From a virus (taxonomy: Duplodnaviria > Caudoviricetes), in IMG/VR virus record IMGVR_UViG_3300013901_000008, positions 32,001-96,000 of that record: DNA of 64,000 bases. One strand, written 5' to 3'. Position numbers and translations under genes: made by a program. Below the pieces are notes generated by a model. The model saw nothing but the letters and a program-made list of their open reading frames with translations, had not been told where the DNA came from and searched no databases. This document shows positions 3,636 through 54,682 of this stretch, one piece after another (position 1 is the stretch's first letter; each line of letters starts with the position of its first letter).

Positions 3636-4613
3636 ATGGAGCAAAATCATCAAGATATAACTGCAAAGAATAAACAGCCTATTAATGGCACCCTCATTTA
3701 TCAGCCCAAGGGACCAGCAGGCGAATATGCCAAGTGGGCGATAAACCTATGCAATGGTTGCAGCAATGGGTGTGAGTATTGTTATAACCGAAGAGGCGTG
3801 TTGAGTCATGCCTTTGGCGATGAGCCAAAGCTGGCGGCACCTATCAAGGAATTGAAAGAAAAGTTGGTACGTTCCTACGTCAAGACTAACCAGCTAACCA
3901 GTAATCAGATTAAGAAGCACTGGGATTGGATGGAGCAAGAGTCTATTTACGAGGCTCTCGCTCAGATTTTCGAGAAGGACGTAAACAAGATAGGCTTAGA
4001 AAGACTTCGCAAGGAAGGAATATTTCTGTCGTTCAAGTGTGATCCTTTCGAGCCAAGCACCACTGCTGTCACCACCAAGGCTCTGACACTGCTGATATAT
4101 TATTTCAAGATTCCTGTTACCATTCTTACCAAGAACACCGCTTGGCTTGATGATGAAGATAGCGAGATATATACAACAAGCATGAGGAGTAGCAACCTCC
4201 TTACCATCGGCTTCACCATCACAGGCATGGACGAGATGGAGGGTAAGGCTCCATCTACAGCCGAGCGCATCAATGCCCTGGAACGAGTGAGAGCCTTGGG
4301 CTATAAGACCTTTGTTTCCATGGAGCCTATCGTTAAGTTCTGTCGTGCTAAGGACGTATTGATGGATGTGATGGGCGAGACCGACGAGATACGCCTGGGC
4401 TTGCAGTCGCCATTCAAGAAGGATAGGTACGAGCCTGATGAGTTGATAGAGTTCTTGCAGTACTTGGTGGCAGCTTCGAGAGCCACACCAGAAACCGAGG
4501 TGGTACTGAAGAAGAGTTTCTTCGATGAGCGATTATACAGACAGATACCAGCCTACCTGCACGATGACTATATGCAGTTGGTGAACGAGTTGAAATGTAA
4601 TGAACCTTTGTAA
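3636..4613 (+). CDS. radical SAM protein (SplB-like fold)
   Basis: GCSNGCEYCY, FLSFKCDPF, ILTK and TFVSMEP motifs. Confidence 0.85.
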   Translation: MEQNHQDITAKNKQPINGTLIYQPKGPAGEYAKWAINLCNGCSNGCEYCYNRRGVLSHAFGDEPKLAAPIKELKEKLVRSYVKTNQLTSNQIKKHWDWMEQESIYEALAQIFEKDVNKIGLERLRKEGIFLSFKCDPFEPSTTAVTTKALTLLIYYFKIPVTILTKNTAWLDDEDSEIYTTSMRSSNLLTIGFTITGMDEMEGKAPSTAERINALERVRALGYKTFVSMEPIVKFCRAKDVLMDVMGETDEIRLGLQSPFKKDRYEPDELIEFLQYLVAASRATPETEVVLKKSFFDERLYRQIPAYLHDDYMQLVNELKCNEPL

Positions 4614-10556: not shown

Positions 10557-10593
10557 CAAAATTATAAAATTCCCCATAAACGGTAGGGACAAA
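10557..10593 (-). promoter_or_regulatory. late promoter (leftward, terminase operon)
   Basis: Minus strand reads TTTGTCCC-N21-TAATTTTG. Confidence 0.7.
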
Positions 10594-10603
10594 GCTAAAG
10601 GCC

Positions 10604-10640
10604 TTTGTCCCCACCAATCAGAGCAAAACCATTACCTTTG
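10604..10640 (+). promoter_or_regulatory. late promoter (holin/neck/tape measure operon)
   Basis: TTTGTCCC-N21-TACCTTTG. Confidence 0.75.
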
Positions 10641-10724: not shown

Positions 10725-11408
10725 ATGCAAACTATCATTCCTTATGTCACAAGGTTCCTGGCAGCCATCATCGGCATCATCTGGTGCTACATCGAACCTT
10801 CCATCAATTACATCGCCGTATGCGCCTTCGCTCTCCTCCTGGATTGCTATACAGCCTGGCGATTGAACCGACGCATCTACAGCCGCTATCGAGAAGCCAT
10901 TAAGAAAGACCCTCGATGTAAGATAGACGGCAAGCTGAAATCGAAGAAGATGGCAAAGATGGTGCAAGATTTCTCGGTGCTCATCATGGCGATATTCCTT
11001 GCCACGCTCGTAGATACCGTGATACTCGACTACATGAATCCTCTTCACCTCGCCAACTATCTCGCCGCCATCTATTGCAGCGTCCAGTTTATCAGTGTTC
11101 TCGAAAACGAGAGTACCTGCAATGGTGCAGCCTGGGCAAAAGTGATGCAGAAGATTGTGGCTGATAAGACGGAACGACATTTCAATGTCAAGATGAAAGA
11201 CTTGATAGAAGAGGAAGAGGAAATCAAAGGCAAAGACCCCTACGGGCATAAAAGCAATTCCGAGATAGAGGAGGACGAAAGAAGCAATGTTTCTTCTGGC
11301 AGGAAATCCCCATCGCCCGACAACGATTCTGCACCATCAGGAGAAGAGTCTGCATCAAATGAAGATGAAGATGATGCAGATAAATCGGAAGATACCAACT
11401 ACCCTTAA
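10725..11408 (+). CDS. phage holin family protein with acidic disordered tail
   Basis: Several hydrophobic segments and an ISVLEN motif typical of Bacteroidetes phage holins. Confidence 0.7.
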   Translation: MQTIIPYVTRFLAAIIGIIWCYIEPSINYIAVCAFALLLDCYTAWRLNRRIYSRYREAIKKDPRCKIDGKLKSKKMAKMVQDFSVLIMAIFLATLVDTVILDYMNPLHLANYLAAIYCSVQFISVLENESTCNGAAWAKVMQKIVADKTERHFNVKMKDLIEEEEEIKGKDPYGHKSNSEIEEDERSNVSSGRKSPSPDNDSAPSGEESASNEDEDDADKSEDTNYP

Positions 11409-25567: not shown

Positions 25568-25604
25568 TTTGTCCCTATCTCGAAAGTAAAAAGCCTTACC
25601 TTTG
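25568..25604 (+). promoter_or_regulatory. late promoter (protease/capsid/tail tube operon)
   Basis: TTTGTCCC-N21-TACCTTTG. Confidence 0.75.
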
Positions 25605-28897: not shown

Positions 28898-29455
28898 ATG
28901 GCAGATACAGTAACATGCCCCCAGCTCCACGATGTACTCAACGATGATGAGTGCTTGGAGAACCGCGCTGGTCTTGGCATTAACGTCTATATCGGATTGA
29001 AGAGTGAACTTTCCGCCCCCCTCACTGCTACGGAGAATGTCTATTCCACCCCATCCTTCCAGAGTGGAAAGGGTCTCTACAAGGTAGAGGGTAAGGATGA
29101 CGCGCAGCAGATTCAGGGTTCTTCCCTTGGTTATCGCAAGGGATTTGAACTTACTTGCAATTTCGCCATTGACTCTGTAAATGAGGCTGGTGGTAAGTTG
29201 GCTCGTGCAATCAATAACCGTGATATTTTTATTATCGTAAAGGATAACGAGAAGTCACAGATTATGTATGACCCTGACAAGAAGGTTAAGTTTGACTCAG
29301 GCGGCATTAAAACAGACACGGGAGCCAAAAGCGACGACGACCGTAGCACGACCTTCGAGGCAAAACTTTCGAGCGTAAATTATCCAAACCTTTACGTGAC
29401 TGAGCCTTCCGCTGGCGGTTGGGATTCCCTCTTGGCTTCTAAGGCGGGGGAATAG
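28898..29455 (+). CDS. major tail (tube) protein; possible -1 frameshift extension to 29613
   Basis: 185 aa after the capsid gene with a tube-like TDTGAKSDDDRSTTFE motif; ends GCG GGG GAA TAG. Confidence 0.7.
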   Translation: MADTVTCPQLHDVLNDDECLENRAGLGINVYIGLKSELSAPLTATENVYSTPSFQSGKGLYKVEGKDDAQQIQGSSLGYRKGFELTCNFAIDSVNEAGGKLARAINNRDIFIIVKDNEKSQIMYDPDKKVKFDSGGIKTDTGAKSDDDRSTTFEAKLSSVNYPNLYVTEPSAGGWDSLLASKAGE

Positions 29456-31912: not shown

Positions 31913-33013
31913 ATGAACACAAAACAGCAAAACGTTCTTCGCTCATTGCTGAAGAAGTATCAATATAAGAATGTGAGCAACATGGTGCGCATGGCTCTCG
32001 GCATCAACTACGAGAATTTCTTGCAGAAGACAGAGCCGCTCTATGTGGTACCACGCATCGCTTCCTGCTATCCCGAAGGCGAAGACAGAAATTGTCTGAA
32101 TGGCAAGGTATATAAGGAGTGGCTGGATATGTTGGTGCGCAAGCGTTGGGTGAACCCTATCAATGAATACACCGACCAATATGGAGCGCATATCGTGCTG
32201 CAAGCTATCTACTATCTTATCGACAACAATCTTTGGGATGTTTATGAGGGCAGACTTGCCCTGGATGCCAAGGAGGATAATTACTACGATAAGTTGGGTG
32301 ATATGCCTTCCGCCATCGCCATGATGGAGGAAAATAACAAGAAAGAGGCAGAGGCAGTTCAAGAGGAAGAGAAGACGCAGCCATCATTGCCAAGCGAGGG
32401 AAATAGCAAAAACAACAACCAACGCCCTGAATGGTGGAACGCTCCAGATTATATTTTAAATGCAGACGAAGCGATGTCTTTGATGGGAGAGTCCGATGAA
32501 ATGTTCTTGCATCTTACGCAAAATATGAAGCGTCTGGCCAACTATATATATACTGCTGCCGAATCTGATGTTTTGCGTGAGAAAATATCCGACCAGCAGA
32601 GTGAGCTGGAAAACGAAAAAATGGTGCATCAAAAGCAAGTTTCCGTCTTGCAGGTACAGATTGATGACTATAAAGCCAAACTAGATGATGCCATCGCCAC
32701 GGCAAAGAAAGCGAGCGATTACATCGCCAATCTAAAGTTGAAACTTTCTGCCAAGGAGACCGAGGCTCAAAGGGAATATGATGAGCTGAATGCCAAGTAT
32801 AAGAAAGCCCTCGATGAGCGAGACGCAGCCGACCGAGACTTGGAGGCTTGCAAGAAGCTTCTTGACGAGGAAGCCAACAAGCAGCAGTTGCCTAAGAAGA
32901 AGGTGATACCTTTCAGCGTTCTTGATGCAGTTCCTCTGCTGGGCAAGGGAGTAATGACAGGCTTGGTTCCGGTACTCGCAAGATATAACATTGTGGTGGA
33001 CTATGACAAATAG
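31913..33013 (+). CDS. hypothetical protein with C-terminal coiled coil
   Basis: 366-aa ORF. Confidence 0.7.
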   Translation: MNTKQQNVLRSLLKKYQYKNVSNMVRMALGINYENFLQKTEPLYVVPRIASCYPEGEDRNCLNGKVYKEWLDMLVRKRWVNPINEYTDQYGAHIVLQAIYYLIDNNLWDVYEGRLALDAKEDNYYDKLGDMPSAIAMMEENNKKEAEAVQEEEKTQPSLPSEGNSKNNNQRPEWWNAPDYILNADEAMSLMGESDEMFLHLTQNMKRLANYIYTAAESDVLREKISDQQSELENEKMVHQKQVSVLQVQIDDYKAKLDDAIATAKKASDYIANLKLKLSAKETEAQREYDELNAKYKKALDERDAADRDLEACKKLLDEEANKQQLPKKKVIPFSVLDAVPLLGKGVMTGLVPVLARYNIVVDYDK

Positions 33014-33027
33014 GGAGGCAAGAGCGT

Positions 33028-33870
33028 ATGGAGAATCATATACCAGGCGAAATCATGCGCAAGGTTAAACAAGACCTGATACACGAGGTATTGGCTATCC
33101 CGAACAGAATGACGCCGAGCAATGAGCCTATCAAACTAGAACCCACCTTTCGAGGCAGTGAATACTACGACTCTAGTATGTATCTGAAGTTTAACAACGC
33201 CATCGAGCGAATGGCGCAGCCGAGGGAGGTAGAGCAGGTAGAGATAGACGTGGAGTCTGTTTGTCGAAACGAATGGGGCAGTGTCTATGCTGTGGCGGCG
33301 CATTACCCAAGCGGATTGGTAGATACGGATATGCTCACGAAGATGAGGGGCACCGACAAGATGTCGAAGGGCAGAGGTTACGGATGGTCTTCTTACCAGA
33401 CTAAGTTTCGTTTTCACCCTCTTTTTGTTAGTGCTTACATCGCTTCAATATATGGCTTTCAGAAGGTAAGTGATTTGCAAATAGCCAAGGAGTTGATGGT
33501 CGGTTTTACAGCTTTAGGTAAGTCTGTATTTTATGGCAACTATTGTCTTTCAATCTGTGCTGGCGGCATCGAAATCATAAGGTGCATCGAGATTAGCAAG
33601 GGGGAGGGAATGACAGTAGAGGGCAATGTTTATCCAAGACCAACGGAAGCCATTGACTTTATTCCTTATGAGGAGATTGATAGTGCAAGCATCAAGAATC
33701 TGTATAGCCACGTCTTGCATAGATATGTGGAAGGCGAGGATTATAATGTAGATGATGTGGTAAATGATGATCTCGCCAAGGAAATCTTTGAGTTGAGTCT
33801 TTCGAGGCTCAAGAAGAAAGTGGGCGACAAGGGTATGGATCTTTTAACCAAGATGGATGAAAGAGGATAG
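33028..33870 (+). CDS. hypothetical protein
   Basis: 280-aa ORF. Confidence 0.65.
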   Translation: MENHIPGEIMRKVKQDLIHEVLAIPNRMTPSNEPIKLEPTFRGSEYYDSSMYLKFNNAIERMAQPREVEQVEIDVESVCRNEWGSVYAVAAHYPSGLVDTDMLTKMRGTDKMSKGRGYGWSSYQTKFRFHPLFVSAYIASIYGFQKVSDLQIAKELMVGFTALGKSVFYGNYCLSICAGGIEIIRCIEISKGEGMTVEGNVYPRPTEAIDFIPYEEIDSASIKNLYSHVLHRYVEGEDYNVDDVVNDDLAKEIFELSLSRLKKKVGDKGMDLLTKMDERG

Positions 33871-37876: not shown

Positions 37877-38018
37877 GGATATAAACTATGATGTTTTATC
37901 GAAAATTTATCCTATCATTAGCATTTTTAATACAAGCGCAAATGTTTTACGAAATATTTTATTTACTTTTGCAGTCATATAAATTTGATTTATCATTTAG
38001 ACTAAAAAGTAAGAGAGT

Positions 38019-38924
38019 ATGGAACTAAGACATTTGCGCTCGTTTGTTTATGTGGCAGATACGCTTTCGTTTAGCGTAGCTGCATCCTATTGTTGTGTCA
38101 CCCAATCGGCAGTTAGCCAACATATCAAGGCTTTGGAAGATGAGTTAGGTTGCAAATTATTGATACGTACCTCGCATGACATCATGCTAACCGAAAGCGG
38201 AGAGGCTTTGCTACCTCGCGCCAAGGAGATACTGAAGCAGACGGAAGACTGCAAGGAACATATTCATGCCATCAACAACTGCATCACAGGCGAATTGCGT
38301 ATTGGGGTTGGTTCTTTTATCGCTCCTTATATACGTGTAGCTGCACTTACTTTCATGGAGCGATACCCTAACGTCCTTATCAATGCGGATTTCAATAAGG
38401 CACATATTCTGAACCGTTCGCTTCGATCACATAACATCGACCTTGCGTTCACGATGAATACTGCCTACAAGCATGAGGGCATTGAGTCTAAGCCATGCAT
38501 CCCTTTTCATATCTATACTATCATGCGTAATACTCATCCTTTGGCCAACAAGGATAAATTAGCATACGAAGACCTTTTGAAACATCCTGTTGTCATGCCA
38601 GATGTCGGAGAGCGAGAGTTTGAGACTTGCCAACGCTATATCCAGCGAGACCTCACCAAACTAAATGCAAGATGTATCGTAAGTGACCCTGATGAAGCCC
38701 TTGCAGCCGTAGAGGAAACGCATTGGATAACCTTTGCGCCTAAGCTATATCTAAAGAACCACCCTACCCTCGTAGCTCGACCTATCATAAGCCTTGAGCA
38801 AGGTTTTGTGAGTAACGTACATTATATGCAAGATGTTCCGATGAAACGTTCTGCGCAACTTTTCCTTGACATTATCAAGGAAGAAGCAATACCTTATATC
38901 GCCGCTTTGGAAGAGACGATGTAA
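38019..38924 (+). CDS. LysR-family transcriptional regulator
   Basis: MELRHLRSF...SFSVAA...VTQSAVSQHIKALEDELG HTH, followed by a GELRIG substrate-binding domain. Confidence 0.95.
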   Translation: MELRHLRSFVYVADTLSFSVAASYCCVTQSAVSQHIKALEDELGCKLLIRTSHDIMLTESGEALLPRAKEILKQTEDCKEHIHAINNCITGELRIGVGSFIAPYIRVAALTFMERYPNVLINADFNKAHILNRSLRSHNIDLAFTMNTAYKHEGIESKPCIPFHIYTIMRNTHPLANKDKLAYEDLLKHPVVMPDVGEREFETCQRYIQRDLTKLNARCIVSDPDEALAAVEETHWITFAPKLYLKNHPTLVARPIISLEQGFVSNVHYMQDVPMKRSAQLFLDIIKEEAIPYIAALEETM

Positions 38925-39066
38925 GATGAGTTATCAATTTTGATAATTATATAAGATGAGTTATCAAAAATTATAATCATAAGATAAGCGTTTCTTCCTT
39001 ATAATTTTGTTGCAACGACATTTAATGGAAACCACATTTCTGTTTACCTGTTTCGCTTTACCTTTG
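38922..39066 (+). promoter_or_regulatory. putative LysR operator repeats plus promoter of the Cys-rich operon
   Basis: TAAGATGAGTTATCAA at 38922 and 38952; TACCTTTG at 39059-39066; a related box at 37887 upstream of lysR. Confidence 0.6.
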
Positions 39067-39107
39067 CATACGATTCCGATATTGGAAGAATTTAATACAA
39101 TGAAGTT

Positions 39108-39626
39108 ATGCAGGTAAAAACGAATGATGGTAACTACGATGTTGCCAGCAAGGGATTGGGCAACACAGCCCTTGGCCTCGGTATCGCTGGTTTGGCTACT
39201 AGTTTGCTGGGCGGCGGTGCCTCGCTTTTTAATCTTGGGCGAGGAAACAATGGTATGACTGCCAACCCTACCGACCCTGATGCTCGTTTCGTCACTAAGA
39301 GCGAGACGAACCTTATTCAGGAAAACTCTACTCTCAAGACAGAGCTTGCTATCCAGAAGAGCGAGAACTACACCGATAAGAAATTGGTGGAGGTTACTCA
39401 GTATTTGGATGGCAAGGTACGTCAGCTTGAGAACAAAGTGGATGCCAACAAGGATGCACAGCAAGCCGTAAATGCACAGCAGATGGCATACAATGCCGCT
39501 GCCAATGCCAACATCGACGTGCTTAAATCGCAGGTGGCAGCACTCACCAGTGTTACCAAGTTGATGATTCCGTCGGGCAATGTTTGCCAGACGGGTTGCG
39601 GATGTGGATGTGCTTGTAATCAGTAA
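39108..39626 (+). CDS. Gly-zipper/coiled-coil protein with Cys-rich tail
   Basis: GLGNTALGLGIAGLATSLLGGG; ends CQTGCGCGCACNQ. Confidence 0.75.
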   Translation: MQVKTNDGNYDVASKGLGNTALGLGIAGLATSLLGGGASLFNLGRGNNGMTANPTDPDARFVTKSETNLIQENSTLKTELAIQKSENYTDKKLVEVTQYLDGKVRQLENKVDANKDAQQAVNAQQMAYNAAANANIDVLKSQVAALTSVTKLMIPSGNVCQTGCGCGCACNQ

Positions 39627-39638
39627 AGCTTAGGCGAT

Positions 39639-40061
39639 ATGGAATACAAGAACTCCCAAATTTTGGCAGCGGTCGTGTCCGAATGGGCACGCCCTGCCAT
39701 TTCTCAGATAGCCGCTGGCAATCTGATGCGCCTTCCTATGTTGCAATCTCTGCAAGCTACCATCGGTGGCATGGGGCTTGTGAGTGGAAGCTATTCCCTA
39801 CAAGCAGATATGGAACCTATGATTCAACCTGTAGTGAATGCACTCGTTACCCCGATGCTTACCAAGTATTTTGGTAACATTCCAGAAGAGAGTATTCCGC
39901 AGATGGCTCATGATGTAGTGAACAGTCTTCGCTACAAGGGTCCACTGTCGGTATTGGAGGGGTTGGTTACTTTCGAGGAAGAAGATCTCGATGAACTCGC
40001 AGACCTTCTTCAGAAGAATCTACCAGTAGAGAGTAATCAGGGCTATCAAGTAAAACATTAA
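39639..40061 (+). CDS. hypothetical helical protein
   Basis: 140-aa ORF in operon. Confidence 0.7.
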   Translation: MEYKNSQILAAVVSEWARPAISQIAAGNLMRLPMLQSLQATIGGMGLVSGSYSLQADMEPMIQPVVNALVTPMLTKYFGNIPEESIPQMAHDVVNSLRYKGPLSVLEGLVTFEEEDLDELADLLQKNLPVESNQGYQVKH

Positions 40062-40093
40062 TATCGAAAAGCTTTTCGGCGACTTAAACAGAA

Positions 40094-40528
40094 ATGATTA
40101 TGAACAAAAGAACGTTTCCGGCTAATATCATAGCCACGCTTGCAGTAGGCTCTTCCACCACTGCACCTTATTACGACATCAATATCACACAACAGCTTTG
40201 CGTTCCGGCATGTGCGGACGAGACTCCTGTCTTTGCGCCTAAGTTTACCATCAAAAGTATTGCCAATGTTGGAACCTCGCAATACCTTGTTGTGTTGCAT
40301 GTAGAGGGAGTTATCAGTTATGTACCTTGCGGCTGTGGCTCTTGTTGCACTCGCTCGCAGGTGGTGAGCCAGGACTTTACGATACCAGTCTTTAGCGCAA
40401 CCGCTATTAGCGGCATCACTGCATCGGTGGGTAGCATACAGAATGGTATCGCAAAAGTGTCTTGCCAGTCATGCAGTAAGACCTTTGTGTGCGATGCGCC
40501 TCTCACGCTCACGATTGCCACGGCGTAA
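40094..40528 (+). CDS. Cys-rich beta-strand protein
   Basis: LCVPAC, VPCGCGSCC and SCQSCSK...VC. Confidence 0.7.
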   Translation: MIMNKRTFPANIIATLAVGSSTTAPYYDINITQQLCVPACADETPVFAPKFTIKSIANVGTSQYLVVLHVEGVISYVPCGCGSCCTRSQVVSQDFTIPVFSATAISGITASVGSIQNGIAKVSCQSCSKTFVCDAPLTLTIATA

Positions 40529-40546
40529 CGTAAAGTTCCCCTTGCG

Positions 40547-40897
40547 ATGATGATGTATCTGTTTGTAGCCATCGCTATGATGATGGCGGCTACCCTTATT
40601 CAACACCTTGGTTTGGCAGAAGCGATAACCGAGATATTGGTTAAGGTGTTAAGCAAGGTTGCAAGTTGTAATCAATGTTTTACGTTTTGGTTGTCGCTTG
40701 CAGCTTTGCTTTGCGAGGGTTGTACTATAGTCTGGGCTATCGCTCTTGCAATCCTCATGGCTTATTTGTCTAATTGGTTTGTCTTGTTGTTGATGATCCT
40801 TCAAAGGTTGTTCTCCAAGATATATAATCGGGAAAAAGAATATGAGCAAGAAAGAAAATACGAACGAAAGAAAGTTGAAAGAAAGAAAGCAGGATGA
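40547..40897 (+). CDS. membrane protein with CxxC (DUF1360-like)
   Basis: Three hydrophobic segments; SCNQCFTFW. Confidence 0.6.
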   Translation: MMMYLFVAIAMMMAATLIQHLGLAEAITEILVKVLSKVASCNQCFTFWLSLAALLCEGCTIVWAIALAILMAYLSNWFVLLLMILQRLFSKIYNREKEYEQERKYERKKVERKKAG

Positions 40898-40982
40898 AGT
40901 TTCTTTCTTTCAGCCTTTGGGTAAGTATCAAACATTGATACCTGTCATTCCTCATTTCAAGGGCATCTGCCCGAATTGTTGA
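40842..40982 (+). CDS. small protein (46 aa) ending in CPNC, absent from the ORF track
   Basis: MSKKENTNERK...IPVIPHFKGICPNC. Confidence 0.5.
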   Translation: MSKKENTNERKLKERKQDEVSFFQPLGKYQTLIPVIPHFKGICPNC

Positions 40983-41012
40983 ACTTTTGTGATATAAAAT
41001 GTAGAAGAAAAC

Positions 41013-41513
41013 ATGAGATATATTCAGTTGATAGAACAGGCTCGCTTGCATGGCGTTACTTCAGAAAAGAAAATGTGGGCAGCCATCGAACAAATGTCTT
41101 GCGACTTGATGGTTCTTGAGAACGACCATTCAGAGTTGTATTGGCAAATATTAAGAAATCAGCACGCCATTCTTTACGACCGCCATTACAGCGAGAAGTT
41201 TGCTAACCATGATGTAAATCGCCTTGTACATAGCAAACTCAATGGCAAGGGAGAGTCTGTAGGTATGGGTGCGCATTGGACGAAATCGGAGATAGTGGAT
41301 GCTACCAAGGGAATGCAATTCCACGAAAAAGTGAACGATTGGGATAAGTATGTAGCATTTAATGCTATGTATGCAGACCTTTGCGCCGATATGACCGATG
41401 AAGAGATTATCAAGGCGGCTTATCTTTTCTATTTTCATGATGCAGACTGGCAACCATCGGAGGATGATTGCACCAAGGTTTGGGATTACATGAGTAGTCA
41501 TGCCAAGATGTAA
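41013..41513 (+). CDS. conserved hypothetical helical protein (His/Asp/Trp-rich)
   Basis: GAHWT, WDKYVAFNAMYAD and FHDAD...KVWDY. Confidence 0.7.
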   Translation: MRYIQLIEQARLHGVTSEKKMWAAIEQMSCDLMVLENDHSELYWQILRNQHAILYDRHYSEKFANHDVNRLVHSKLNGKGESVGMGAHWTKSEIVDATKGMQFHEKVNDWDKYVAFNAMYADLCADMTDEEIIKAAYLFYFHDADWQPSEDDCTKVWDYMSSHAKM

Positions 41514-41565
41514 GGTAAGGAAAGTGTTCAGGATAACTTGTAATTTTAAGATTGATGTTTATATT

Positions 41566-41604
41566 GAAGCCTCTTTGCGCCTATGGTAGCCGCAAAGGGG
41601 CTTC
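41566..41604 (+). terminator. hairpin closing the Cys-rich operon
   Basis: GAAGCCTCTTTGCG...CGCAAAGGGGCTTC. Confidence 0.6.
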
Positions 41605-41610
41605 CACTGT

Positions 41611-41647
41611 TTTGTCCCCACTAAAAAAATCCTTTTTTCTATCTTTG
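41611..41647 (+). promoter_or_regulatory. late promoter (endolysin/portal/tail operon)
   Basis: TTTGTCCC-N21-TATCTTTG. Confidence 0.75.
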
Positions 41648-41674
41648 CATCATCAATACAAAAAATATAAGATT

Positions 41675-42229
41675 ATGGCAAAAATAGAACCAATCGCAAA
41701 ATTCATTCTCTCCTTTGAGGGAGGTTTCGTCAACGACCCGAAAGACAAGGGTGGTGCGACCAATAAAGGCGTAACCATCGCCACCTGGCGTATGCAAGGC
41801 TATGACAAGGATGGCGACGGCGACATCGACGTGGATGATTTGAAGCTCATCACCGATGCCGATGCCACCGAAGTTATGCGCCGCTGTTATTGGAAGCGAT
41901 GGCGTGCGGACGAAATCAAGAACCAGAGTATTGCCAACCTACTTGTGGATTGGATTTGGTGCAGCGGAACGCCATCTATCACCATCACCCAGTCGATGCT
42001 TGGGCTGAAAGCAGATGGCATCCCTGGTAAGCAGACGATTGCGGCTATCAATCGGCAGAACCCTAAGACGTTCTTCAATCGCTTGAAGGCTCGCCGTAAG
42101 CAATTCTATGAGGGCATTGTAAAGAACAATCCTTCGCAAAAAAGATTCATCAATGGTTGGTTGCGAAGACTCGAAGCTATCAAGTATGGCTCGCTTGTTA
42201 CCAATAGAGGCACTATCATAAAGTGCTAA
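41675..42229 (+). CDS. endolysin, glycoside hydrolase family 108 with peptidoglycan-binding domain
   Basis: EGGFVNDPKDKGGATNKGVT and QKRFINGWLRR; the likely start is MAKIEP at 41675. Confidence 0.9.
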   Translation: MAKIEPIAKFILSFEGGFVNDPKDKGGATNKGVTIATWRMQGYDKDGDGDIDVDDLKLITDADATEVMRRCYWKRWRADEIKNQSIANLLVDWIWCSGTPSITITQSMLGLKADGIPGKQTIAAINRQNPKTFFNRLKARRKQFYEGIVKNNPSQKRFINGWLRRLEAIKYGSLVTNRGTIIKC

Positions 42230-43469: not shown

Positions 43470-45293
43470 ATGACAAGAAAAAACAGAGTCACAAACTTGC
43501 GGCAGTTCCAACATCGTAGTGAGGAACTCAAGCGAGAAGGCTATGTAGCCGTGCGCCCTGATGCCTACGTGTCGCCCAAGAACGGCGGCTGCAAGGTATT
43601 CTCTTGGAATGACTACGTTCGCTCCATGCTCCTTAGCGAGGCCGGCATGAGTGCCAGCAGTGCATCGGGCGAGGGCAGCGCAGCTCGGCAGCAGGTATCT
43701 ACCATCTTCGCATCGAGCGGAGGCGAAAGCCTGTCAAAGCCAAAGGATGTTGGCACACCCGACCTTGGCTACATGGAATGGGGATTCGGCAACCGCAAAC
43801 CTAACATCGTATGGTTGCTTACTCGTATGTCGCCATTCACTGCGGCTGGCTACGATTTCATCAAGAAAATCTTGGTGGGTCGCGGTCCTATGCCTAAGTA
43901 TCACTATACACAATATGTGGGTGGCAACATCACGGAGAAGTATATCCCCTACGAGACGGCAGGCGTGTTGCTTCGCGGTCGTATCGCCGAGTTGAAGGCG
44001 CAGGAGGAAAAGGCTAAGTTGGAACGTCAGCAAGCCGAGCAAGCGCAGCAGAACCAGCAACAGGGTGAATCTGATAATACTTCAGAAGAAAAGCCTATAT
44101 CTCTTAACCTTTCCTATCCTGCCCAGGATGAAGAGGATTCCGATGAGATGAAATCTCTTAAAGAGGATTTGAAGAAATGGGAAGAGACGAATGCCTGGGT
44201 TCGTCAATTCATCGACGATAACGACTTGATGCAGACTTACCTCAATATGGCTGGCGATATGGCTCTGATGTCGCAGTGTTTTGCAGAGATCCAGTTGAAC
44301 CAACGTCAGTTGGGCGATAATGGCAAACCAGTAGATACAGCCAACTGGAAGCCAAAGGCAATCGGGCTAAAACATCGCAGTATCTTTACTACCCGACTGG
44401 AGCGACAAGATAGCAAGTATCGCATCAACTATGCGTACATTTCTAATCAATGGCTCGATGCCACCCAGTCTGCCAACACCCTCAAAGAGGAAGACCGAAA
44501 AATATCTGCCTTGCCTTTCTTGCAATCCACATCGGCTGTAAAAGACTTGCAGCGATACATTAGGGAGGCGAGACAGAAGCGAGTGAGCGTAAAGAAACGC
44601 CCTACCCGATTCATCATGTCGCCAAGAGATTATGGTGGCCCATACTATGCCGATGCTTCTTGGCACTCCATCTTTGCCGGCAGTATCTTTGAGTATGCTT
44701 TCACCATCGTGGATGATAGACTCACGAGAAAGCGCAACAGCAACATCATCGGTCGAGTTATCTACATTCACCAAGACTACATCAACAAGCTCTATCAGCA
44801 GCAAGGCGAGAGCAAGAAGAAGACCATTGGCGAGATTCAGAACGAAATCTTCACATCCATCAATACATGGCTCGCCAATCCCGACAATGCAGGTCAAGCC
44901 CTCGTCTCTTCCGCCTTCACGGGTAGCGACGGTAAGGAGCACAAGGCTTGGGAAATCGTGGAAATCGAAAGCAAGGCCAACGACCAAGCGAATGCCGACA
45001 AGACCGAGTTGCAGGAGATTTCGAGCATCATCTTCTTTGCCATGGGTCTTGATGCCAAGCTTATCGGCAACACGCCTGGCGACACGGCTTCATCGGGTGG
45101 TACCGACCTTAGAGAGCGATTCTTGGTTAAGCAAATCCAGTTTGCTCCTATGCAGCAAGCGATGCTGAGACCGCTGGAGGTTATCTCCCGATTCAACGAG
45201 TGGGATGAGCATCTCGTTTGGCAGATAGACAGAGAGGTGCTGACTACCCTCGATAACTCGAAAACTGGAGTAGCAAAGCAGGGACAGGAGTAA
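43470..45293 (+). CDS. portal protein
   Basis: WGFGNRKPN, IIFFAMGLDAKLIGNTPG...GGTDLRE and LTTLDNSKTG motifs of Bacteroidetes phage portals. Confidence 0.8.
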   Translation: MTRKNRVTNLRQFQHRSEELKREGYVAVRPDAYVSPKNGGCKVFSWNDYVRSMLLSEAGMSASSASGEGSAARQQVSTIFASSGGESLSKPKDVGTPDLGYMEWGFGNRKPNIVWLLTRMSPFTAAGYDFIKKILVGRGPMPKYHYTQYVGGNITEKYIPYETAGVLLRGRIAELKAQEEKAKLERQQAEQAQQNQQQGESDNTSEEKPISLNLSYPAQDEEDSDEMKSLKEDLKKWEETNAWVRQFIDDNDLMQTYLNMAGDMALMSQCFAEIQLNQRQLGDNGKPVDTANWKPKAIGLKHRSIFTTRLERQDSKYRINYAYISNQWLDATQSANTLKEEDRKISALPFLQSTSAVKDLQRYIREARQKRVSVKKRPTRFIMSPRDYGGPYYADASWHSIFAGSIFEYAFTIVDDRLTRKRNSNIIGRVIYIHQDYINKLYQQQGESKKKTIGEIQNEIFTSINTWLANPDNAGQALVSSAFTGSDGKEHKAWEIVEIESKANDQANADKTELQEISSIIFFAMGLDAKLIGNTPGDTASSGGTDLRERFLVKQIQFAPMQQAMLRPLEVISRFNEWDEHLVWQIDREVLTTLDNSKTGVAKQGQE

Positions 45294-54605: not shown

Positions 54606-54648
54606 AACACCCAAGCGATTCACCTGCGGAATCGCTTGGGTGTTTTTT
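54606..54648 (+). terminator. intrinsic terminator
   Basis: AACACCCAAGCGATTC-N7-GAATCGCTTGGGTGTT followed by a T-run. Confidence 0.8.
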
Positions 54649-54682
54649 GTCCCAACAATAAAAAAGCCTTTTTGTAACTTTG
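54646..54682 (+). promoter_or_regulatory. late promoter (tail fibre operon)
   Basis: TTTGTCCC-N21-TAACTTTG. Confidence 0.75.

Follow-up and report, generated by a model that had tools for sequence, protein, structure and literature searches.

No role is known for the majority of genes in gut Bacteroidales phages, and among the described phages the closest counterparts of the element treated here, a LysR-linked cassette of six genes (g1-g6), are gene blocks of crAssphage (Carjivirus communis) and Bacteroides phage BS162P1. The cassette lies at positions 37880-41604 of a stretch of 64,000 nucleotides, called the window, which represents bases 32001-96000 of a 106.5-kb IMG/VR phage record (IMGVR_UViG_3300013901_000008), complete by CheckV. 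In crAssphage, the block gp61-gp60-gp59-gp58 resembles the cassette in that the product of its first gene has a g1-type N-terminal motif and Gly-zipper, a coiled coil and a Cys-containing C-terminus, in that a DUF7841 protein stands last, and in that small soluble proteins lie between the two, in the same order. Equivalents are found in cr3_1 and in Bacteroides phage BF1-TP2, the three having in common a gp61-type anchor, two small proteins and DUF7841. Unlike the cassette, the crAssphage block lacks g3, g4, g5 and LysR and includes an extra gp60-type protein. The block of BS162P1 (BS162P1_00095 to 00101) comprises a g1-like anchor ending in PCCCNTGCGCNG, homologues of g3 (30% identity) and g4 (34%), which adjoin each other, and a DUF7841 protein, again in the order of the cassette, whereas other small proteins replace g2 and g5 and the upstream gene encodes a 96-amino-acid protein with sub-threshold helix-turn-helix (HTH) matches only, and not LysR. 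All of the crAssphage and BS162P1 genes concerned are annotated as hypothetical, except for gp61, which bears the unsupported label 'putative tail protein'. PHROGs returned nothing for the crAssphage module genes, and no relevant literature was found on DUF7841, on crAssphage gp58 and gp61 or on crAss-like lysis genes.

The cassette is a self-contained, regulator-led accessory operon, and represents one form of a module which is widespread in Bacteroidales phages and has so far not been described. This anchor-to-DUF7841 module is defined by an anchor of the KG-x-GN-x-x-L-x-LGI-x-G type in first place, a DUF7841 protein in last place and co-oriented small genes between them, an arrangement which the cassette of the window shows. 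Its parts are of four kinds. The anchor protein (g1; gp61 in crAssphage) combines the N-terminal motif and a hydrophobic Gly-zipper segment with a coiled coil and a tail rich in Cys. Next come small soluble proteins, one or two in number (g2 in the window phage), and an optional insert formed by the Cys-rich beta-sandwich g3, to which the membrane protein g4 and the CPxC peptide g5 may be added. The DUF7841 protein (g6) closes the module. An initial annotation, made from the DNA letters without database searches, had described an intact LysR gene followed by six co-oriented genes. Both were recovered, the former as a full open reading frame (ORF) with both Pfam domains and the latter as ORFs g1-g6, all present. 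The features of the locus are the following:

38019..38924, + strand: LysR-type transcriptional regulator of 301 amino acids (Pfam HTH_1 and LysR_substrate; phrog_3736 at 4e-48)
38922-38937 and 38952-38967, + strand: two exact TAAGATGAGTTATCAA boxes, the exact sequence occurring exactly twice, 30 base pairs (bp) apart
39059..39087, + strand: putative cassette promoter, with a -7 box TACCTTTG (39059-39066) followed by the conserved palindrome TTCCGATATTGGAA (39074-39087), from sequence reading and relatives
39108..39626, + strand: g1, anchor protein of 172 amino acids; conserved motif at the N-terminus, hydrophobic Gly-zipper segment at residues 22-40, coiled coil, CxxxCxCxCxC tail at the C-terminus
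39639..40061, + strand: g2, 140-amino-acid acidic helical protein, Cys-free, without family match
40094..40528, + strand: g3, 144-amino-acid Cys-rich all-beta protein, in whose alignment C36, C40, C84 and C124 are nearly invariant
40547..40897, + strand: g4, optional protein of 116 amino acids, predicted to have three membrane segments; it contains CxxC motifs and its C-terminus is strongly charged
40842..40982, + strand: g5, 46-amino-acid basic peptide ending in CPNC, which overlaps the end of g4 and co-occurs with it
41013..41513, + strand: g6, 166-amino-acid helical DUF7841 protein (Pfam PF25223) with invariant His, Asp, Trp and Lys positions
41566..41604, + strand: terminator-like hairpin closing the unit (-25.3 kcal/mol, z -4.4)
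41611..42229, + strand: neighbour outside the unit, a late promoter (41611-41647, by the late motif) and a GH108 endolysin gene (41675-42229, by Pfam and PHROGs)

The relationship with the described phages is seen at both ends of the block. The N-terminal 30 residues of g1 matched the crAssphage gp61 family in hhalign (probability 93.7%, E 1.9e-7). At the other end, g6 belongs to DUF7841, scoring 27.3 bits against PF25223 (curated cut-off, 25.2), and its relatives bear a precomputed PF25223 label; the same family was detected in crAssphage gp58 (1e-37, 129 bits) and in a BS162P1 protein (5e-11). Moreover, 75 loci from smaller gut phages were surveyed, five of them being read closely for lysis genes. 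The anchor was matched in 61 of the 75, a g2/gp59-like protein also in 61 and g3 in 9, while 66 contained a small upstream gene with a DARYxLV-type motif, a putative HTH regulator. LysR as a defining part of a new system, as had been proposed, is not supported: other phages have this small putative HTH gene instead and one relative, L065, adds a gene for an extracytoplasmic function (ECF)-type sigma factor (Sigma70_r2 and r4_2; L065:4473-5003) between lysR and g1. The latter gene suggested g1 as an anti-sigma factor, a candidate which was rejected because the window phage genome contains no sigma factor. As for g3, an exhaustive profile search yielded 67 representative clusters, nearly all of them small proteins of similar length, and scans of viral contigs with two distant g3 homologues returned no loci. 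The DUF7841 match in MN917146 (crAss002; 32803-33339) is restricted to the C-terminal half of the profile and falls in an open frame of 70 amino acids beside an annotated gene of 104; the DUF7841 gene may be split or decayed in this phage. Directly upstream of the g1-like gene of cr3_1 (L078:909-1610), a 233-amino-acid protein was observed with several hydrophobic segments, an HTH-looking C-terminal stretch and no Pfam match.

The relatives of the cassette are the 67 IMG/VR viral loci returned by a scan with g3. A synteny survey, which the initial annotation had suggested, showed that the order LysR-g1-g2-g3-g6 is kept in 65 of the 67, usually followed by an endolysin gene, and LysR adjoins the cassette in 65 loci. 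By contrast with this core, g4 is absent from most relatives and occurs, together with g5, in 13 loci only; g5 gave a tblastn match in 12 of these 13 and was read as an ORF in L065. The ratio of non-synonymous to synonymous substitutions (dN/dS) was at most 0.09 for LysR, g1, g2 and g3 in at least one computable comparison, a sign of strong purifying selection on these four, and about 0.25-0.38 for g4 and g5; synonymous sites are saturated among the relatives, and the dS of g6 was saturated in every comparison. Judged on the sequence, the ORFs of the cassette are real genes under selection, including the 46-amino-acid g5; its C-terminal motif, P-x-F-[KR]-G-x-CPxC, is retained by L027, L052, L058, L060 and L065.

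While the gene order is kept, the surroundings are not. The unit has been shifted together with the endolysin to another site in two relatives (L058/59), has no endolysin adjacent to it in three (L060-62), and is inverted relative to the flanking late genes in a further two (L052/53), where LysR is found downstream. L066 and L067 have no g2, and in them an in-frame fusion joins residues 1-146 of g1 to the final ~40 residues of g3; the fusion (L066:5572-6126 in the former) is joined at a shared SQV, exchanging one Cys-rich tail for another, and is kept in two diverged genomes. The two genomes with this truncated cassette, G405 (rated 92% complete) and G406 (with terminal repeats, rated 100% complete), contain no LysR or g2 anywhere, and the g1(1-146)::g3 C-terminus fusion and g6 are all that is left. 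The loss of LysR, of g2 and of the greater part of g3 was thus a joint one, which shows all three to be dispensable, ties LysR to the cassette and excludes this protein as a master regulator; an accessory unit bound to its regulator had been anticipated. LysR as an activator of the late genes of the phage was likewise ruled out, the complete genome G406 having no LysR. The unit thus reads as an accessory operon whose place and orientation vary among relatives.

With regard to the regulator, the protein has the N-terminal winged HTH, the C-terminal substrate-binding domain and the length of about 300 amino acids of the LysR family, with HTH_1 at 2.7e-20 (72.5 bits) and LysR_substrate at 8.4e-26 (91.1 bits), both above their cut-offs; no NCBIfam equivalog was found at cut-off. 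Its best cellular homologues are merely 34% identical, and therefore a search for a host origin yields no clue to the ligand. Downstream of lysR, the duplicated boxes reported initially were recovered as two exact copies of TAAGATGAGTTATCAA at 38922 and 38952, the first of which overlaps the lysR stop codon and holds a perfect palindrome, TTATCAATTTTGATAA (38931-38946). A further copy, placed at 37887 upstream of lysR, is present by eye as a 12/16 match, but it does not exceed the chance level, because matches with three mismatches or fewer are already expected 0.87 times per window. As regards a T-N11-A dyad of LysR type, the palindrome TTATCAATTTTGATAA does exist, but among relatives it is common to L064 only, the others having at the box position either GTAC repeats with a period of 8 bp, in variable copy number (most of them), or other sequence. 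In L001 and most relatives, the gap between lysR and g1 (e.g. L001:4810-4860) holds tandem 8-bp GTAC units (TGTACTTN) instead of the two boxes, and the array differs in copy number between contigs, the intergenic length being 199, 207 or 215 nucleotides. Despite these differences, the recognition helix of LysR is identical in all the relatives read, and the comparison therefore gives the boxes no support as a LysR operator, the role in which they had been cast.

The only parts of the regulatory region conserved across relatives are the proximal promoter and the palindrome just after the -7 box. The -7 box, TACCTTTG, is of the Bacteroidetes type and stands upstream of g1 with no TTTGTCCC ahead of it, in agreement with the early description of a cassette promoter devoid of the late motif. 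Five copies of this motif, TTTGTCCC-N21-TAnnTTTG, are present in the window where none would be expected (10557-10640, 25568-25604, 41611-41647 and 54646-54682, two copies being back to back), and the copy at 41611-41647 is the endolysin promoter, which had been placed correctly beyond a hairpin closing the unit. The 14-bp palindrome TTCCGATATTGGAA becomes GTTCAAnnTTGAAC in L058-L062 by a compensatory change (L058:4637-4650). It was considered as an RNA hairpin in the leader and rejected, the -3.2 kcal/mol obtained in the window phage being no better than that of shuffled sequence; since it is weak as an RNA hairpin in the window, it may be a protein-binding site. Given its own non-late promoter and closing hairpin, the unit is judged to be autonomous, as first suggested.

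In this lineage the cassette is situated between a tail-tube-like gene (28898-29455) and a 607-amino-acid gene (43470-45293), whose roles are putative, and it could accordingly be asked whether it encodes virion parts, either tail or ejected proteins. The product of g1 would then be a trimeric coiled-coil fibre or ejection protein, with a Gly-rich segment inserting into the host membrane at infection and a Cys tail cross-linking the trimer, and g2, g3 and g6 would be its assembly partners. This would agree with the position of gp61 among the tail genes of crAssphage and with the label it was given there, as well as with the very high conservation of g1, the most conserved gene of the cassette (identity of about 91-97% in most relatives, the endolysin having about 64%). 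Furthermore, virion proteins that insert into membranes typically have Gly-rich segments of moderate hydrophobicity. Nevertheless, the cassette promoter lacks the late motif of the phage late operons, a dedicated regulator adjoins the unit in several lineages, and L052/53 have the unit in the opposite orientation to the late genes. Moreover, one complete genome lacks g2 and most of g3, the module is present both in Crassvirales and in the window phage, which has a tail-tube-like gene and an 1855-amino-acid ORF, and no structural family of PHROGs or Pfam was matched. A virion function is thus regarded as improbable.

Concerning the proteins themselves, two have predicted membrane segments and several are rich in Cys, in line with the initial annotation; the tail of g1 carries five Cys within its last 13 residues. 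The AlphaFold2 (AF2) model of g3 is all-beta, with a predicted local distance difference test (pLDDT) score of 93.4, and that of g6 is helical (pLDDT 92). Neither had a Foldseek match at E <=0.001, g3 in PDB or BFVD and g6 in PDB. The best VIA-align results were Z 5.5 for g3, to HSP20/CS-type sandwiches, and Z 3.9 for g6, to weak rows of CE-clan proteases with no Cys conserved at the matching position. Going by these confident models without a known structural relative, g3 and g6 look like new folds. Sequence searches of the PDB with g1, g2 and g6 gave chance-level rows only, PADLOC had no match for LysR or g1-g6 at E <=0.1, NCBIfam and PHROGs offered nothing for g1-g6 beyond weak rows, and the cassette proteins matched no defence models, spore-coat families or enzymes. 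A complex prediction for g1 with g6 scored 0.00 against a mark of 0.32, which is evidence neither way. In most family members, the hydrophobic segment of g1 is flanked by acidic residues on its N side and by basic ones on its C side, and the g3 family has no signal peptide, the N-terminus of the g3 model being a confident strand of the fold. These flank charges, together with the fact that neither g3 nor g5 has a signal peptide, suggest that the Cys clusters face the cytoplasm, where metal binding would be likelier than disulfides.

In the interpretation first advanced, the cassette was a signal-inducible moron building a membrane-anchored, disulfide- or metal-cross-linked assembly, similar to spore coat or exosporium, that would protect the lysogen (from oxygen or metals) or coat virions. 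In favour of such an assembly are the autonomy of the accessory unit, the regulator next to it, its numerous conserved Cys clusters and the membrane segments predicted for two of its proteins, and a feature match of g3 to a SipL SPOCS cluster in the ESM Atlas (rank 25, score 0.93) provides a lead, though only a lead. The coat analogy, however, found no support: no PF12673 (SipL/SPOCS) match was obtained at E <=1 in the genome or in the Pfam scan of g3, neither Foldseek nor VIA matched the g3 model to a coat protein, and the DUF1360 suggested for g4 gave no match (PF07098, at E <=0.1 for g4 and at E <=1 anywhere in the genome). The lysogen fared no better. No tyrosine integrase was found in the 106.5-kb genome, and of 401 Bacteroidales genomes only 2 gave a DUF7841 match above the cut-off, so that a long-lived lysogen is doubtful; DUF7841 is a property of phages seldom present within bacterial genomes. 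In addition, the module occurs in crAss-like phages, for which evidence of lysogeny was not found in this analysis. A protective assembly is for these reasons considered very unlikely. On the whole, the initial annotation described the cassette accurately, DUF1360 excepted, and its autonomous, accessory and synteny-conserved unit was supported, while the spore coat, the lysogen, the LysR-defined system and the boxes as operator were not.

As for the host, the related sequences are viral contigs of ~50-110 kb and bins labelled Prevotella or Bacteroidales, and therefore the window phage probably infects a Bacteroidales bacterium. Elsewhere in the window, the ORFs at 1318-1956 and 3636-4613 show radical-SAM-type CxxxCxxC motifs (CTNKCRDC and CSNGCEYC), seen in translation only.

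The neighbourhood of the endolysin raises a further question, namely whether the unit is itself lysis machinery, in which g4 would be a class I holin and g1 either a class III holin or a spanin of the inner membrane. The unit adjoins at least three types of endolysin, GH108 by family match and, by eye, an amidase in L065 and both an M15-like peptidase and an L,D-carboxypeptidase-like enzyme in smaller phages. In L058/59 unit and endolysin moved together, three membrane segments are predicted in g4, whose C-terminus is charged, and the general layout of g1 is like that of an Rz-type spanin. Against this, canonical holins and spanin-like lipoproteins are already present. A Phage_holin_4_1 protein of 227 amino acids with a long acidic C-terminal tail (26.8 bits, above cut-off) is encoded at 10725-11408 of the window, distant from the endolysin. 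In the smaller phages, an endolysin and a spanin-like lipoprotein are found upstream of the module in four of the five loci read, and a two-segment holin-like ORF stands beside the endolysin in two. Lipoproteins of this kind, with a C-terminal membrane segment, are encoded elsewhere in relatives and not at g1; no ORF with a lipoprotein signal exists in or beside g1, as a two-component Rz/Rz1 spanin would need, and among the ORFs none was found to encode an outer-membrane lipoprotein that could pair with g1. Neither g1 nor g4 matched a holin family in Pfam or PHROGs, g4 is missing in most relatives, the promoter differs from the late class, and a hairpin lies between g6 and the endolysin. Lysis machinery proper thus appears, like a protective assembly, very unlikely: the module lies beside lysis genes without being part of them, because separate genes for endolysin, spanin-like lipoprotein and holin are present. 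In L065 (7345-8381) and in L131, L173, L181 and L188 (around 1700-2900), several endolysin types are each followed by a protein of 130-180 amino acids with a lipoprotein signal and a C-terminal membrane segment, which is the layout of a unimolecular spanin.

The reading tentatively favoured here, held to be possible rather than probable, is that of a regulator-gated accessory module at the cytoplasmic membrane which affects lysis timing or superinfection. LysR, or another factor, would turn the operon on upon a signal in the infected cell; the proteins would then assemble at the cytoplasmic membrane through g1, plus g4 where present, with the Cys clusters binding metal instead of forming disulfides, and through this assembly the envelope would come to behave differently at a late stage of infection, the most likely effect being on when lysis occurs or on whether a second phage can enter. 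A more far-reaching version, in which the module is a new machine at the cytoplasmic membrane, made of metal-binding, Cys-rich proteins with new folds and common to crAssphage and numerous other Bacteroidales phages of the gut, and LysR, small HTH proteins or ECF sigma factors serve as sensors gating lysis or the exclusion of rivals according to the state of the host, seems unlikely.

Several points weigh against a membrane module of this kind. None of the proteins has a known function or fold, and every mechanistic step is therefore inferred from sequence features and gene neighbourhood. The hydrophobic segment of g1 is borderline (Kyte-Doolittle 1.3-1.9) and its topology ambiguous, and g1 is more conserved than the portal-sized 607-amino-acid protein encoded downstream (43470-45293), which is unusual for lysis or exclusion proteins. 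The homology of g2 with the gp59 family is not demonstrable, the hhalign probability being an insignificant 2.2%, and in crAssphage the module is found among tail genes, with gp61 annotated accordingly. Proximity to lysis genes may merely indicate a common insertion spot for accessory genes. Finally, no conserved LysR site was identified among relatives, and control by LysR is offered as a proposal.

The work described here ties the LysR-linked cassette to a module that recurs across unrelated lineages of gut phages and has distant counterparts in crAssphage. The module usually travels with its own regulator, and this points to a conditional, not a fixed structural, function. Two cultured phages, BS162P1 (isolation host B. 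salyersiae BSC162) and BF1-TP2 (B. fragilis BL19), carry versions of the module, so its function can be tested at the bench, and the apparent new folds of g3 and g6 are worth solving. Should the module turn out to adjust lysis or superinfection to host signals, it would be relevant to the persistence of these abundant phages beside their hosts.

Beyond the counterparts in crAssphage and BS162P1, two known systems invite comparison. The lysis-inhibition set of T4, holin T with RI and RIII, also combines a single-pass membrane protein, which has a large non-membrane domain, with small soluble partners, situated near lysis or acting on it; the likeness is one of layout alone, the two having no sequence or fold similarity. 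Phage morons, for their part, resemble the cassette in having their own promoter and terminator, in being dispensable, in varying in place and orientation and in lying beside lysis and structural genes. Classical morons are expressed from the prophage, whereas no tyrosine integrase was found in the phage carrying the cassette and the module is rare in bacterial genomes. Compared with most morons, moreover, the cassette is larger and carries its own regulator.

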